Part shown: piece by piece, positions 25,401 to 43,400 of the stretch
Numbering within the stretch: the stretch's first letter is position 1
Layout: each line of letters begins with the position of its first letter
Assembly: GCA_965248445.1 (NCBI GenBank)
Contig: CBDFJG010000002.1
Coordinates: 544,001 to 608,000 of the forward strand
Length of the DNA: 64,000 bases
Direction of reading: 5' to 3'
Source: Planctomycetota bacterium
GTDB taxonomy: Bacteria > Planctomycetota > JAJSAM01 > JAJVHW01
Program-made: the position numbers

Positions 25401-28400
25401 TGTCCACTCCGGGATCAGACCCGGGAAGAGGGAGCTCTGCGTGCCGCGCGCGGATGGCGCTCCGGGAGCGTCCGTAGAGTCAGCGGCGGGAGTTTCAGTT
25501 GTGCTCATCGGCGTGCAGACGCCGGATAGGGGGACGGCGTCCGTCCGTAGTGGGTTGCCCGGTCTGGGCATTAGAGATCTTGTCAGAGAGTCTGCGGGGT
25601 TCCGTGGCCGCTGGCCTACGAACACCCGGTGGTCTGGCCGCAACCGACGCACTTCAGGCAGGTGCCGTTGCGAACCAGCATGAACTGACCGCAGTCGCTG
25701 CAGGGGTCGCCCTCGAAGCCCTTCATGCGGGCCTGCTTGATGGCCTCGTGCAGGGAGAGTGTCCCGAAACGCGACACCGAGACGGTGGTCGTCTGGGCTT
25801 CGACGTGCAGCGCGGTGGTGCCACTTCCGGACGACGTGCCGGACGAGCTGCCGTTGCCGTTTCCGGATGCGCCGTTGCCATTTCCGGATTCACTCCCATT
25901 GCCGGACGGGTGGTAGCCGGTCGCCGCGCCGGCTGTGTGGGCCAGCGTCGGTGTGTCGGCCGCCGTGATGCCGCGGTGCAGCGCCTCGGGGGGCGCCTTG
26001 GTGGAAGTCGTCTCACGGGAGGCCGCGGGGACGTCGACGTCTCCGTCCGCGGCGGGGGGATCGAAGAGCGGCGTGTCGTCCGGAGTGGTCGGACCGACCG
26101 TGTCGCTGCGCAGGTCCTCGGGGATCACCTGGCCGAGCTCGCCCCGGTTCAGGTAGTTGATCGCGAGGTCGCGGAACACGTAGTCGATGATCGACGTGCA
26201 GAGCTTCACCTGCTCGTGGCCCTGCACGATGCCGTTCGGTTCGAAGCGCGTGAACACGAACGCGTCCACGAACTCGTCGAGTGGCACGCCGTGCTGCAGG
26301 CCGAGCGAGATCGCGATCGCGAAGCTGTTCATGAGGGAGCGGAACGCGGCGCCCTCCTTGGCCATATCGAGGAAGATCTCGCCGAGGTTGCCGTCCTTGT
26401 ACTCGCCGGTGCGCAGGTAGATCTTGTGACCGGCGATGACCGCCTTCTGGGTGTAGCCGCGGCGGCGGAACGGGAGCTTCTTGCGCTCCATGACCGGGAC
26501 GCGCTCGATGACGATCTTCTCGACGACGCGCTCGATGACCTGCTGCGTGACCTGCTCGGTCACGGCCATCACCTCGCCGTGGCGAGAGAGCGGTACCTCC
26601 TCGCTGTCGTCGTCTTCGTCCTCGTCGTCACTGACCGAGCTGAGCGGCTGGCTGAGCTTGCTGCCGTCGCGGTAGAGCGCGACCGCCTTCAGCATCAGCT
26701 CCCAACCCAGTCGGTAGGCGTGCTGGACCTCGTCGAGCGTGGCGTCGCTCGGCATATTGATGGTCTTGCTGATGGCGCCGGACAGGAACGGCTGCGCCGC
26801 AGCCATCATCTGGAGGTGCGCCTCGAACGGGATGTACCGCACGCCCTTGCGGCCGCAGCGGTTCGCGCAGTCGAAGACCGGCAGGTGCTCGTCGAGCAAG
26901 TGCGGCGCGCCCTCTACCGTCATCGTGCCGCAGACGTAGTCGTTGGCGGTCTCGATGTCGGTGCGGGAGAACCCGAGGTGGTTCAGCAGACTGAACGTCG
27001 CCGATCCGAGTTGCTCGTCGGTGACGTCCAGGACGTCGCGGCAGAAGTCCTCGCCGAGCGTGAACTTGTTGAACACGAAGTTGATGTCGAAGGCGCCTTC
27101 GAGCTGACCCTCGACCGCTTCGATCTGCGCGTCGCCGAAGCCGTGCGCGCGGAGCGCTGCGAGGTTGACGCCGGGGGCGCCTTCGAGCGTCTGGTGGCCG
27201 ACCACGTAGCGCTCGATGTCGAGCACCTCCTGGTCGTTGTAGCCGAGGTTGCGCAGTGCCTGCGGGATCGACTGGTTGATGATCTTGAAGTAGCCGCCGC
27301 CGGCGAGCTTCTTGTACTTGACGAGCGCGTAGTCCGGCTCGATGCCGGTCGTGTCGCAGTCCATGACCAGACCGATCGTGCCGGTCGGGGCGATGACGGT
27401 GACCTGCGCGTTCCTGTAGCCGTGCTTCTCACCGAGGGTCAAGGCGCGGTCCCACGCGCCGCGGGCGGCTTCGAGGATGCCGGCCGGGCAGAGCTGGTCG
27501 TCGATGCCGGTCGGCGTGACCGAGAGGTCCTCGTACTCGCTGCCCTTCGCGGCGTAGGCGGCGCGCCGGTGGTTCCGGATGACGCGCAGCATGTGGTCCT
27601 TGTTTTTCTCGTACCCGGGGAACGGGCCGAGCTCGGCGGACATCTCGGCGGAGGTCGCGTACGACTCGCCGCCCAGGATCGCGGTCAGCGCGCCGCAGAT
27701 CGCGTAGCCCTGGTCGCTCGCGTACGGGATGCCGAGCCGCATGAGCAGCGTGCCCATGTTGGCGTAGCCGAGTCCGAGCGTGCGGTAGACGTAGCTGAGG
27801 TGCGCGATCTCCCTGCTCGGGTACATCGCCATCATCACGCTGATCTCGAGGACGATCGTCCACAGGCGGATCGTGTGGCGGTACCCGGCGACGTCGAACG
27901 AGCCGTCGTCGGTCAGGAACTTGACCAGGTTGATCGACGCGAGGTTGCACGCCGTGTCGTCGAGGAACATGTACTCGGAGCACGGGTTGCTGGCGTTGAT
28001 CGGGCCGTCCGCGGGGCACGTGTGCCACTCGTTGATGGTCGTGTCGTACTGCAGGCCCGGGTCGGCGCAGGCCCACGCGCTGTAGGCGATCTTCTCCCAC
28101 AGCTCAGCGGCCGGCATCCGGCGGGCCTCCGCGCCGTCGGTGCGGCGGGTCGTGACCCAGTCGCCGTCTGCATCGAGGGCCTCGAAGAACGAGTTCGGGA
28201 TGCGGACCGAGTTGTTCGAGTTCTGGCCGGAGACGGTTGCGTACGCCTCACCGTTCCAGTCGGTGTCGTAGACCGAGAACGGGTACTCGGTCCAGCCCTG
28301 GGCGCCGAGCTGCAGCGCGCGCTGCACGTAGGGCTCGGGGACCTTGTCGCGGCGAGCCGCGCGGAGCGCCTTCTTGAGGGACTTGTTCTTCTTGGGATCG

Positions 28401-40400: not shown

Positions 40401-43400
40401 CGGGGATGACTGGGACGACGTCGAGGTCGAGGGCCCAGCGTCCTGGGTGCTCGAGGACGCGGAATTCCTGCTCGACCCGGAGTGGATGGACGAATAGCGG
40501 CACGCGCCGGGCTACACGTCGCGCAGGACGCCGCGGAGCACCAGGAACGCGTGCTGCCGGTCAGGCAGTCCGTCGGTGTCGACGTCGTTCCAGTCCAGGC
40601 CCGCGAGGTCGGCGGGTCGATCCCCGTCCTCGCCGACGAACTGCGCGCCGACGAGCGTCGCCGGGGCGCCCCGGGCGCCGCGGAGGATCGCCCCCGAGAG
40701 ATCGGCTCCGTCGAAGTCCGCTCCCTCGACGAGCGCCTGCGACAGGTCGGCGTCGCGCAGGTCCGCATTGCAGAGGTGTGCGTCGCGCAGGTCGGCGCCG
40801 CGCAGGCTGACCCCGCGCAGACGCGCGTTGCGAAGTGACGCGCCGTGGAGCGAGAACCCGGAGAGGTCGACGTCGCGGAGGTCCGCGCCGAGCAGGTCCT
40901 GGCCGGCCAGGTCCTTGGCCTCGAGCAGTCTGCGGAGCGTCGCGATGTCCACGTGTCGCACGACGTAGCGCTCCTCGGTCCACGGATCGGCGCCGTTGTG
41001 GTAGCCGGCGGTCCGCTCCCAGTATCCGAGCTTGTCCTCCTGCAGCAGTTCGATGCGCCGCAGCCACTTCACCGACTTGAAGAAGTAGCGCGTGAACAAG
41101 ACAGAGCGAACCGGACCACCGTGCTCGGCCGGAAGCGGGATCGGACCGCCGCCCAGGTCTACGTGATCCGCGATCAGCACGTCGTTGCGCGCGATCTCGA
41201 TGGGCAGCGTCGTGTCGTGTCCGCGGCCGGACACGAACCGGACGAACCGCGTCTTCTTCTTCGGTCGTGCGCGATCGAGCAACTCCGAGAGAGCGACGCC
41301 GCCGAACGCCGTGTCCGGGCGCGACCAGCGCGTCACGCAGTGGATCGTGCCGCTCCGCGTCGTGCGAGGGAGACCGGCGAACGCGTCGTGCGAGAGGGTG
41401 AGCGGTTCCTTCACGAGGCCATCGACGGCCAGCGACCAAGTGCGGGCGTCGAACTCCTCGGGTTCCCGTTCGCCGATGCGCGGGAACGCGCGGGTCGACA
41501 GCTGGTTCGGGGGCAGGCGAGGCTCCTTCGCCACCTTGCCCATCAGCGCGCGAGGACCTTGTCGACGAACGTCTTCACGATGTCGGCGGCGCGGTTCATC
41601 TCGGGTTCGATGTGCGCACGGCGCGCGGCGAGCTGCTTGAACGAGTGATCGCCGCCGGGGACGACGTGCAGCGCACCCGGCAAGCGCAGCGACTTCCGCT
41701 TGCGCCGCAGGATGTCGAGATTGCAGAGCGCGTCGCGGTCGCCCTGGACGAACAACATCGGGGCGTGGACCGACTTCAGGTGATCCACGCGCAGCTGGTC
41801 TTGCTTGCCGGCGGGATGGAGCGGGTAGCCGAGGAAGATCAGCCCTGACGGCTGCACGCGGCCCGCCGCGACCAGCATCGAGGCGACGCGCCCCCCCATG
41901 CTCTTGCCGCCGAGGAACAGCGGTCCTGGGGGCGAGCCCGTGCGCTGGGACGATGCCGCCACGACATCGTGGTAGCAGTCGACGAGGAGATCCATCTTGT
42001 CGGGGGGCCGCCGTCCGCCTCCGACCGAGCGCTCCATGTAGGGGAAGTTCCAGCGCACGACGCCGATGCCGCGCTCGGCGAGCGCCGCGGCAAACCACTC
42101 CATGAACTCCGAGCGCACTCCGGCGCCGGCGCCATGCCCGAGCATGACGACGGGGGTCGTCTTGGCGATGTACTCCTGCGGGACGTCGATCACCGTCTGG
42201 ATCGCGCCGCCCCGGCGAAGCCTCAACGAGAAGCAGTGCTCGGCCACGGGATCATTGTGACGGCAGGTGGGGGACAGGGGAACAGGTTGGGGCCGTTACT
42301 CGCCGGTGTCGTCGGCGCCGCGGCTCCGGATGAGCCGGACGCGCTTGGGGGGCCAGACGATCATGACCGGCTTGCCCACGAGACGGCTCCGGTGCACGGC
42401 TTGCTTCTCGCGGCTGTCCTGGCTGTTGCTCGAGTTGTCACCCAGCATGAAGAAGTCGTCCGGACCGAGCACCCACTCGTCGTCGTCGTAGTCGCTGGTC
42501 CAGTGCACATCCCGCTCGATGCGCGTGATCCGTGCCCGGGCGCCGCCGCCCGTGATCCGGACCTCGAAGTTGCCCGAGGGCGCCTGGCGGCGGGGGTACT
42601 CGGGCTGGGGCTGCTCGCTCTCGGCGTGCACGTCGTCTACGTCCAGGCGGATGATCCGGTCCACGTAGGCGAGCCGGACGTCGTAGTCCTCACCGGGCTT
42701 GATGCGCCCCTCGATACGGAACACCTGCTCGTCGTCGACGCGCAGCTCGATCGAGCCGTCGGACGCCGAGAGGATGGCGTCGACCCAGACCGACCCGCGG
42801 GCCAACCGCACGGTGATCTTCGAGTCGGCGTCGACCGGTCGGACGGTCAGCGAGAACCGCGCGTCGGGCACCTCCGGGAAGCCGTCGCGATCCTCGCCGG
42901 TCAGTTCGTCGTACGTGCGGTCGTCGACCGGCTCTATCAGGCGGAGGATCCCCTCGCCCCGCCCGCTGTCTCCCTCTGTGGGCGTCCCCTCGAATGTGCC
43001 GTCGGTGTGCAGCAGCCAGCGGCCCGTGGCCGACGTGAACAGGTCGGTCAGCCGGTCGCGGAACTCTTCGATGGCAAGTTCCTGATCGTCTTCGGCGTCT
43101 GTGCGGGCCCGCCGCCACTCCCCGCGCAGCGTCCACCAAGGGAAGAGCATCTCCTCGTAGAACCTGTCCCGCTTTCGCATCAGCCGCCCGGACAGATAGA
43201 TGTCGCCCTCGCGAATGCGCAGCCGGTCGCCCGGCAGGCCCATACACCGCTTGACGTAATTCTTCCGTTCGGTGCCCCACCCGTCGAACACGACGATCTC
43301 ACCGCGCTTGGGGGTCTTCGTGAGCCGGTTGACGAGGATGCGGTCGCCGTCCCGCTTGTCTCCGTGCAGCGTCGGCTCCATCGACCGCGTGGGGATGTGA

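Follow-up and report, generated by a model that had tools for sequence, protein, structure and literature searches.

Piecemeal loss of haem synthesis genes and probable haem auxotrophy in a cytochrome-rich planctomycete

The window analysed here, a stretch of 64,000 nucleotides from a Planctomycetota bacterium, carries hemD and hemB without the haem synthesis genes that surround them in related genomes, and raises the question of how a cell with many haem proteins obtains its haem. The first-pass annotation had described six missing haem genes and read them as a recent, real switch to auxotrophy. The host genome (~70% GC, IS-rich) has its own assembly of 5.40 Mb in 4 contigs, 92.1% complete by markers; the window belongs to contig C2 and the hemH site to contig C1, which corrects the placement in that annotation.

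To establish the ancestral state, we compared the locus with three genomes of the same family (G005, G006, and G001). All three share one layout, RNR / hemX-hemA-hemC-hemD-hemB-hemL ... UDG-g01108 / hemY-hemN-hemE / Mo-oxidoreductase, so that the synteny first described for G005 extends to the whole comparison set. The hemX-like gene of the relatives encodes a Cytochrom_C_asm domain, while HemN and HemY of G005 were recognized by TIGR00538 (479 bits) and TIGR00562 (282 bits). HMM searches found HemC and HemH in 16/16 relatives of the order, in agreement with the first-pass annotation, and HemE likewise (f1 7/7, f2 5/5, and f3 4/4 for each protein); HemE and HemH were thus present in all seven family members. 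This gene content indicates that haem synthesis in the family follows the protoporphyrin route (HemA, L, B, C, D, E, N, Y, and H), encoded in one conserved supercluster and an unlinked hemH. Since the family already lacks uroporphyrinogen methylase, haem would be the sole product of the pathway. The corresponding features of the window are as follows.

24216..25652, minus strand: dCTP deaminase, conserved left flank (Pfam DCD_N/DCD_C; its orthologue holds this position in G005, at 65-69% identity)
25616..29362, minus strand: class II (B12-dependent) ribonucleotide reductase (RNR), flank of deletion 1 (Pfam Ribonuc_red_2_N and Ribonuc_red_lgC; 74-79% identical to G005/G006/G001)
29363..30090, no strand: junction 1, intergenic; relatives have hemX-like, hemA, and hemC here (~3.2 kb in G005; synteny 3/3)
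30091..30827, plus strand: hemD (uroporphyrinogen-III synthase), retained orphan (Pfam HEM4, E 7e-31; start inferred, the longest ORF beginning at 29973)
30929..31378, plus strand: inserted gene for a GNAT acetyltransferase, which separates hemD from hemB (Pfam Acetyltransf_1; no counterpart at this position in the G005, G006, and G001 loci)
31375..32370, plus strand: hemB (porphobilinogen synthase), retained orphan (Pfam ALAD, 366 bits)
32367..32370, plus strand: junction 2, GTGA in the sequence, in which the stop of hemB and the start of the SDR gene overlap; hemL lies between hemB and the SDR gene in G005, and after hemB also in G006 and G001, both without the SDR gene
32367..32927, plus strand: short-chain dehydrogenase (SDR) of PRK08309 type (NCBIfam NF006168, 184 bits over cut-off; 51% identical to the gene that follows hemL in G005)
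33112..37854, no strand: genome-specific block between two haem sites, with an Ig-domain protein, a PQQ-like protein, a GT4 glycosyltransferase, and a sulfotransferase (Pfam; no counterpart in the G005/G006/G001 loci)
37904..38551, minus strand: uracil-DNA glycosylase (UDG) family, conserved flank (Pfam UDG; 60-64% identical to relatives)
38538..39182, minus strand: g01108, conserved gene, flank of deletion 3 (44-48% identical to the gene adjoining hemY in G005, G006, and G001; no Pfam or NCBIfam match)
39209..40497, plus strand: junction 3, two tandem membrane-anchored orphan genes (39209-39760 and 39721-40497); relatives carry hemY-hemN-hemE here (~4.2 kb; synteny 3/3)
40512..41540, minus strand: molybdopterin oxidoreductase with pentapeptide repeats, right flank (Pfam Oxidored_molyb and Pentapeptide; 59-65% identical; adjoins hemE in G005, G006, and G001)
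41543..42247, minus strand: alpha/beta hydrolase, right flank (Pfam Abhydrolase_11; 59-65% identical)

The two orphans of junction 3 are paralogues, 30% identical to each other; neither the rest of the genome nor the loci of the relatives hold a further copy, and Pfam, NCBIfam, and Atlas gave no match. In junction 1, a CAAGATATAG box occurs twice, at 29883 and 29915.

Six-frame HMM searches of the whole 5.40-Mb, 4-contig assembly (threshold E ≤ 10) returned no match for HemC (PF01379), HemA (PF05201), HemE (PF01208), HemH (PF00762), or HemQ of the coproporphyrin route (PF06778), and for uroporphyrinogen methylase (SUMT, PF00590) only a single 12-bit match, under the cut-off. Genome-wide tblastn with HemX, A, C, E, Y, and H of G005 gave nothing better than E 8e-4 (0.69 at best for HemC, with the family protein as query), and neither remnants of the deleted genes, at the junctions or elsewhere, nor a second hemB or hemD were detected in the 5.4 Mb. 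The HemL candidates from tblastn were class III aminotransferase paralogues, 28-31% identical, and the candidate found with HemN of G005 was a 30% identical paralogue, identified as HemW. Along the pathway, the HemA-HemL arm of the 5-aminolevulinate route lacks HemA and shows only these paralogues for HemL, neither HemE nor SUMT is there to lead out of uroporphyrinogen III, and HemH and HemQ are both absent. Eight of the 10 haem synthesis genes have been lost in four separate clean deletions (hemX-hemA-hemC; hemL; hemY-hemN-hemE; hemH) that left the flanking genes intact, and hemD and hemB alone were retained. The six absences listed at first pass hold, to which the overlooked hemX-like gene and hemY must be added, bringing the loss to at least eight genes; the gene called hemN-like there is a true hemN.

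The deletion sites are assembled sequence rather than gaps, as had been claimed. Their flanking genes are 44-79% identical to the relatives' orthologues, and the runs X1 and X2, which represent one sample and possibly the source of the window's own assembly, each contain one contig of 19,706 nt that covers window positions 29183-42500 with 0 differences and spans junctions 1-3, that is, three of the four (the fourth being the hemH site on C1). The sample resembles a metagenome (~15 million contigs, depth of 8-14). Near-identical IS copies on all 4 contigs argue that the hem sites, the cox and ccm genes, and the btu genes belong to one genome. Of the eight contig ends, six fall within a multicopy prophage and not in unique DNA, and the start of C2 is a repeat; C3 begins within a truncated gene for dienelactone hydrolase, a true gap, so that there is at least one. 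Marker completeness of the relatives falls in the same range as here (87-93%), which points to markers absent in a lineage-specific manner.

The machinery that uses haem has been kept. COX1 (74-84% identical to 7/7 family members), COX2, CtaA, SCO1, CcmE/F/H/C, KatG, and HemW are all present, together with 11 multihaem ORFs with at least 3 CXXCH motifs and up to 18, with no interruption in those that are 450-1299 aa long and carry 8-18 of these motifs.

The Pfam ALAD score of HemB is the lowest among full-length matches (the others reach 404-507 bits), and the protein is 57-58% identical to its sisters, which are 81-83% identical to one another. In the tree, it is placed inside its own family with 100/100 support, on a terminal branch of ~1.0 substitution per site versus 0.15-0.25, a rate ~5 times that of the sisters. 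Across 26 other planctomycete HemB sequences, 42 columns do not vary, and eight of these have changed here (R>Y in the PFR motif, D>G, E>M, E>A, D>A, S>A, A>V, and F>L), versus 0-2 in other genomes (the truncated G011 scores 13 owing to gaps). Losses across conservation classes are nearly flat (18/32/40/39% versus 0/0-5/6-12/20-31% in three controls), which, judged from sequence evolution, makes hemB a retained orphan whose constraint is largely relaxed. Residue retention is 82% at invariant and 61% at variable sites. The frame is uninterrupted and colinear with homologues, and alignment to E. coli HemB (1b4e) showed that the DxCxCxYTxxGHCG motif and the lysines of KFASSFY and VKPA are all kept; we take the Zn-Cys triad to be the metal site and the two lysines to be catalytic. 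An intact triad, both lysines, and an open frame would be unexpected in a long-useless gene. The hemD ORF is likewise intact, 55-59% identical to relatives that share 60-68% with one another (FastTree branch of 0.76 versus 0.30-0.50). The lack of remnants and the long hemB branch imply that the relaxation is old on the scale of genus divergence. The loss itself is supported as real, but "recent" is not supported.

No dedicated haem importer, as predicted at first pass, was found among the TonB receptors, FecCD permeases, and SBP_bac_5 proteins of the genome. The only TonB receptor and the only FecCD permease both lie behind its only cobalamin riboswitch, in an arrangement on C3 (riboswitch [RF00174, 67.6 bits], BtuF-like lipoprotein, BtuC-like permease, ATPase, BtuB-like TonB receptor) that in gene order resembles BtuBFCD systems under such a riboswitch. 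The proteins are closest to BtuB, BtuF, and BtuC, although every NCBIfam score is under the equivalog cut-off, and the system is ancestral, being present in 6/7 members of the family, which is predicted to have already imported B12 by this BtuBFCD-like route. The genome also encodes six SBP_bac_5 (DppA-like) binding proteins. A difference from other BtuBFCD cases is that no second system of this class accompanies the Btu-like one in a cell predicted to need haem as well, and it might therefore take a further substrate. We regard it as a speculative, unlikely idea that B12 and haem share this single ancestral Btu-type TonB/ABC system, and/or that the hemD-GNAT-hemB-SDR operon was kept for a new purpose, e.g., an imported tetrapyrrole precursor; a signal-less second Peripla_BP_2 protein could then possibly be a cytoplasmic tetrapyrrole binder. 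If either held, a haem acquisition route for Planctomycetota would have been described.

Building on what was observed directly (gene absences, synteny, assembled junctions, relaxed hemB evolution, and conserved haem users), we infer auxotrophy and an uptake route: the lineage has probably lost de novo tetrapyrrole synthesis and so would have to import finished haem. Deletion at assembled sites, no copy elsewhere, and a conserved haem machinery make haem auxotrophy the best reading. In the history we propose, four clean deletions would have removed hemX-hemA-hemC, hemL, hemY-hemN-hemE, and hemH, leaving hemD and hemB stranded in an operon with the GNAT and SDR genes, where hemB, its constraint largely relaxed, would thereafter have drifted. 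The cell would keep building its aa3-type oxidase, haem a, Ccm-matured c-type cytochromes, KatG, and many multihaem proteins, and with synthesis lost this would require imported haem, presumably passed to HemW, CtaA, and Ccm, while B12 would be brought in alongside through the riboswitch-controlled BtuBFCD-like system.

It is unlikely, in our estimation, that the pathway resides instead in a gap, or on a plasmid or island, that the assembly does not include, as a second, relocated, or acquired hem cluster that allowed the native genes to be deleted. The first-pass caveat of an unclosed assembly is justified by the gap at the start of C3, the incomplete marker set, and the metagenome-like sample, and a redundant native hemB would drift too, so that its evolution fits either reading. 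However, the missing part would have to hold no fewer than seven enzymes (HemA/L or ALAS, C, E, N/F, Y/G/J, and H), whereas none of them, nor a second hemB or hemD, was found in 5.4 Mb, relatives score the same completeness, and most contig ends lie in the prophage. We consider it quite improbable that hemB and hemD still work, in a non-homologous haem route or a new role, in a cell whose auxotrophy would be incomplete or that takes up precursors. Such a role would suit the intact, colinear ORFs, the preserved Zn site and lysines, the somewhat better retention at invariant sites, and the close packing of the operon, where stop and start codons overlap, but it is hard to reconcile with the absence of HemE, SUMT, and ferrochelatase (and we know of no bypass for porphobilinogen deaminase, HemC) or with the loss of residues invariant in 26 other planctomycetes, including the Arg of PFR; since 70% GC leaves long open frames by chance in all six frames, an open hemB/hemD frame is weak evidence. 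Some bacteria without a haem pathway, such as lactic acid bacteria, respire only facultatively, and the haem-dependent machinery might itself be on its way out toward a fermentative life without haem. We give this very little credence, given that COX1 is as conserved as in relatives, that Ccm, CtaA, SCO1, KatG, and HemW are intact, and that the multihaem ORFs are uninterrupted.

If haem auxotrophy is correct, the growth factors predicted for this uncultured planctomycete lineage are hemin and B12, and the trait would also arise in a large, respiration-heavy genome and not solely in streamlined or host-bound ones. Four deletions and a single relic enzyme left to drift would also make this genome a clear case, in nature, of a pathway eroding step by step, and the lack of an importer points to a gap in knowledge of tetrapyrrole uptake in Planctomycetota. 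The claim of a first case in the phylum is doubtful: G023, of the same phylum and 91% complete, gave no match for HemC, HemB, HemH, or SUMT, and GTDB-wide auxotrophy surveys are in print.

Haemophilus influenzae, Porphyromonas gingivalis, and lactic acid bacteria are the classical host-associated haem auxotrophs with partial pathways. As in these, orphan hem genes appear to outlive the pathway, and respiration on supplied haem, part of the classical picture, is predicted here. Classical auxotrophs have well-defined haem receptors and transporters and typically keep ferrochelatase or late steps, whereas the planctomycete keeps the early-step genes hemB and hemD.

Haem auxotrophy in environmental bacteria is already published, so that the general phenomenon is established and the gain here is incremental. 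It was described in the free-living aquatic acI/Nanopelagicales (Kim et al. 2021, bioRxiv 10.1101/2021.01.11.426183) and among marine sediment isolates (mLife 2024, PMC11139205), both papers presenting wide genome surveys, calling the trait common, and offering hemTUV and dppABCDF as importer candidates. As those papers describe them, these auxotrophs have likewise lost the de novo pathway, kept haem proteins, and are predicted to depend on their neighbours' haem, which was proposed as a reason for unculturability. The importer candidates have no clear match here, where one Btu-like FecCD system and six DppA-like proteins were found. In contrast to the published cases, which in these accounts are mostly small streamlined genomes or Bacteroidota, the planctomycete combines a 5.4-Mb, 70% GC, IS-rich genome with a very high demand for haem c, and its loss is documented site by site through synteny.

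The window, which lies on contig C2 (544001-608000), has a G+C content of about 70%. Since all six frames carry long spurious ORFs, genes were picked by third-position G+C together with homology. Positions are counted from the window start.

Features of the window
10127-10199, minus strand: tRNA gene (Rfam), divergent from the next
10399-10470, plus strand: tRNA gene (Rfam)
13060-14559: insertion sequence (IS) copy
21331-23033: IS copy
24216-25652, minus strand: dCTP deaminase
25616-29362, minus strand: class II B12-dependent ribonucleotide reductase (RNR)
29973-30827, plus strand: hemD ORF (Pfam HEM4), start likely near 30091
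30929-31378, plus strand: GNAT acetyltransferase
31375-32370, plus strand: hemB
32367-32927, plus strand: short-chain dehydrogenase (SDR), PRK08309-type
33112-37854: block specific to this genome
37904-38551, minus strand: uracil-DNA glycosylase family protein (UDG)
38538-39182, minus strand: conserved gene g01108
39209-39760 and 39721-40497, plus strand: two orphan genes, tandem paralogues
40512-41540, minus strand: molybdopterin oxidoreductase
41543-42247, minus strand: alpha/beta hydrolase
42296-44164, minus strand: S26 peptidase
55525-57228: IS copy
59062-60595: IS copy

We compared the hemC, hemE, and hemH loci with those of three relatives of the same family, each from a different genus (G005, G006, and G001). 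In all three, RNR is followed by a divergent run of hemX-like (Cytochrom_C_asm), hemA, hemC, hemD, hemB, and hemL, and a second block reads UDG, g01108 orthologue, hemY, hemN, hemE, molybdopterin oxidoreductase, hydrolase, and S26 peptidase; the two blocks are contiguous in G001. The hemH gene of G005 lies at a separate site, flanked by orthologues of a gene pair that stands side by side in the studied genome (near position 633,000 of contig C1), and in G001 it follows the same upstream gene. The studied genome is devoid of hemX-A-C, hemL, hemY-N-E, and hemH at these sites, with the neighbors of each kept at 44 to 79% identity. Where hemL is missing, hemB and the SDR gene share the sequence GTGA, in which the stop of the first overlaps the start of the second. 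At the hemY-N-E site, ca. 4.2 kb is replaced by ca. 1.3 kb containing the two orphan genes, which are 30% identical; the product of each is predicted to have a single membrane helix, with a CxxC motif after it. Neither the rest of the genome nor the loci of the relatives contain a homologue of them, and the ORF at 39721-40497 gave no Pfam, NCBIfam, or Atlas lead. No pseudogene remnants were detected at the junctions by tblastn at E ≤ 10, nor is there any IS element at them, the nearest copy in the window being that at 21331-23033. Synteny and whole-assembly searches confirm the absence of the six genes listed in the first-pass annotation and extend it to eight genes, four deletions, and one drifting relic. 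The gene described there as “hemN-like” in G005 is indeed missing here, but it is a true HemN (TIGR00538, 479 bits, cut-off 325).

Upstream of RNR there is no cobalamin riboswitch, the two tRNAs being all that Rfam found in the window. Two identical CAAGATATAG boxes (29883-29892 and 29915-29924), 32 nt apart, are located ca. 520 nt upstream of the RNR start. We take them to resemble tandem NrdR boxes; they have no exact match in the G005, G006, or G001 loci.

The pathway was also sought in the rest of the assembly. Six-frame HMM searches gave no match at E ≤ 10 for HemC, HemA, HemE, HemH, or HemQ, and TP_methylase gave only a single 12-bit match, below the cut-off; this is the uroporphyrinogen methylase (SUMT) family, on which sirohaem, B12, and the Ahb route depend. 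With the G005 proteins as tblastn queries, HemX, HemA, HemC, HemE, HemY, and HemH reached E values no better than 8e-4, HemL retrieved only class-III aminotransferase paralogues (28 to 31%), and HemN retrieved a 30% paralogue that NCBIfam assigns to the haem chaperone HemW (TIGR00539, 248 bits, cut-off 205). Among 30 relatives, HemC was found in 28 (G023, from another family of the phylum, being the only one without it), HemB in 28, HemE in 27, and HemH in 25; HemC, HemH, and HemE are each present in all 16 relatives of the same order. Other routes to haem were considered. A protoporphyrinogen oxidase adjoins the g01108 orthologue in G005 (TIGR00562, 282 bits) and, together with the true HemN, indicates that the family uses the protoporphyrin-dependent branch. 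The coproporphyrin route is ruled out by the lack of HemQ, HemY, and HemH here and by the use of HemN plus HemY in the relatives, and the sirohaem-dependent (Ahb) bypass by the lack of SUMT/TP_methylase.

The assembly comprises 5,403,930 bases in four contigs; markers put its completeness at 92.1% and its contamination at 0.17%. A repeat measuring 17 kb or more and common to several contigs holds six of the eight contig ends. We identify it as a multicopy prophage from its gene products: a terminase into which a homing endonuclease is inserted, a ClpP-type protease, an HK97-type capsid protein, and head-completion proteins.

Prophage copies
C3:1793685-1811467 (locus L254): HK97-like prophage, multicopy
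Ends of C1, C2, and C4: further copies

The insertion in its large terminase (LAGLIDADG/Hom_end) is intein-like in appearance. Breakage at rRNA genes was ruled out, as the end repeat has no Rfam match and is prophage instead. Contig C2 starts in another repeat. The first gene of C3, for a dienelactone hydrolase, is truncated by the contig start, which means that the assembly has at least one true gap. Five IS-like elements (two DDE_Tnp_1_4, three IS66) account for 162 full-length copies of ≥99.3% identity, 4.8% of the assembly, and their presence on all four contigs ties these to one genome. The transposase of one of them (element a) has 91 matches here versus 0 to 3 in each of 16 relatives, whose fragmented assemblies under-represent repeats. 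This IS expansion, large and very recent, may signal a recent bottleneck or lifestyle change.

The region is present in four coded sequencing runs (X1 to X4) from one sample and study, which are metagenome-like (ca. 15 million contigs) and contain the organism at a depth of 8 to 14. In both X1 and X2 a single 19,706-nt contig spans positions 29183-42500 with no differences and no gaps, so that the three junctions in the window are reproduced by separate assemblies, although the agreement provides no independent biological support because the sample may be the source of the window assembly.

The surviving hemB was inherited vertically: the tree places it inside its family (100/100 support) as the sister of G005, G006, and G001. 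Its terminal branch measures 1.0 substitution per site versus 0.15 to 0.25 in six other family members, and it is 57 to 58% identical to its sisters, which share 81 to 83% among themselves. For RNR, UDG, g01108, the oxidoreductase, and the hydrolase, this genome is no more distant from the sisters than they are from one another. With 366 bits, hemB gives the lowest full-length Pfam score (others, 404 to 507). Eight of the 42 columns that do not vary across 26 other planctomycete HemB proteins are changed, versus 0 to 2 in other genomes (13 were counted in G011, but that gene is truncated at a contig end). Over columns where the three sisters agree, residue loss in the invariant, ≥80%, 50 to 80%, and <50% conserved classes was 18, 32, 40, and 39%, versus 0, 0 to 5, 6 to 12, and 20 to 31% in three control genomes; this near-flat profile indicates, from the residue pattern, largely relaxed constraint. 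Closer relatives sharing the deletion were sought by scanning contig collections (genomes and metagenomes) with the hemB product; because the peptide patterns derived from this divergent protein, the scans retrieved only genes of 41 to 50% identity, spread over many phyla. At the distances between this genome and its relatives, synonymous sites are saturated. The remaining hemD is mildly accelerated (branch 0.76 versus 0.30 to 0.50, in three relatives only).

A rival reading, that hemB keeps residual function, has to be set beside both what is retained and what is changed. The reading frame is uninterrupted and colinear. In an alignment with E. coli HemB (1b4e), hemB retains the three Zn-binding Cys residues and both lysines; the PFR motif has Tyr in place of its Arg, presumably the A-site substrate ligand R205 of E. 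coli, and Ala replaces a conserved Glu after RE, which we take to be the Mg-site Glu. We read hemB as a putative relic that has drifted over a span of time similar to the divergence between genera. This drift, together with the absence of remnants at the junctions, argues against the “recent” loss proposed in the first-pass annotation.

Users of haem are numerous. A single COX1 (493 bits) is accompanied by COX2, CtaA, and SCO1 beside an 8-CXXCH cytochrome; CcmE, CcmF, CcmH, a CcmC-like protein, an ABC ATPase, and KatG are present; and CXXCH motifs occur at least once in 58 ORFs, at least twice in 17, and at least three times in 11 (top counts, 18, 15, and 14). COX1 is 84, 80, 80, 80, 76, 75, and 74% identical to those of the seven family members and, judged by these values, is normally conserved, in contrast to hemB.

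The haem importer that had been predicted was not recognized among the FecCD permeases, TonB-dependent receptors, and Peripla_BP_2 and DppA/OppA-type binding proteins examined. The genome has one FecCD permease, one cobalamin riboswitch, and one TonB-dependent receptor (counted by BLAST), and a single cluster on C3 comprises riboswitch, lipoprotein binding protein, permease, ATPase, and receptor. The binding protein most resembles BtuF, and the receptor BtuB; of the NCBIfam models, those for TonB-B12 and BtuC/BtuF rank first or nearly so, none reaching its cut-off. Since the receptor occurs in six of seven family members (52 to 59% identity) and SUMT in only one of seven, the family was already a B12 importer, and this Btu-like system is, by sequence similarity, an ancestral one and not a newly gained haem importer. 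Further uptake candidates are six DppA/OppA-type binding proteins and one other protein.

Second Peripla_BP_2 protein
C3:1503012-1503872 (L245:7012-7872), minus strand: 134 bits

Weighed as a candidate periplasmic haem binder, the latter has no signal peptide and no ABC or transporter neighbors, adjoins beta-oxidation genes, and scores similarly against BtuF and haem-binding proteins; a role in binding tetrapyrroles in the cytoplasm is possible. None of these candidates could be assigned to haem. TP_methylase matches over the cut-off, absent from this genome, were found in one of seven family members (G001 to G007) and in 14 of 14 control genomes, and the family appears to have neither SUMT nor the RsmI-type rRNA methylase, which shares this fold.

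Haem auxotrophy is the best-supported reading of this genome, and we consider it likely. The claim that it is the first case in the phylum is unsafe, because G023 (91% complete, 380 contigs) likewise has no match for HemC, HemB, HemH, or SUMT; its 42 URO-D family matches are partial, methyltransferase-like paralogues, and it may be a second tetrapyrrole nonproducer. Literature searches, judged by titles and abstract openings, revealed no planctomycete haem auxotroph. The term “Planctomycet” is absent from the main text of a survey of haem auxotrophy over 24,706 GTDB genomes (bioRxiv 10.1101/2021.01.11.426183), the supplements of which may list Planctomycetota genomes. As such, haem auxotrophy is already known: the same study showed it experimentally in the acI lineage, that is, in abundant free-living bacteria, and haem-dependent isolates have been cultured from marine sediment, where the trait was called common (PMC11139205). 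The planctomycete studied here would add a further case.
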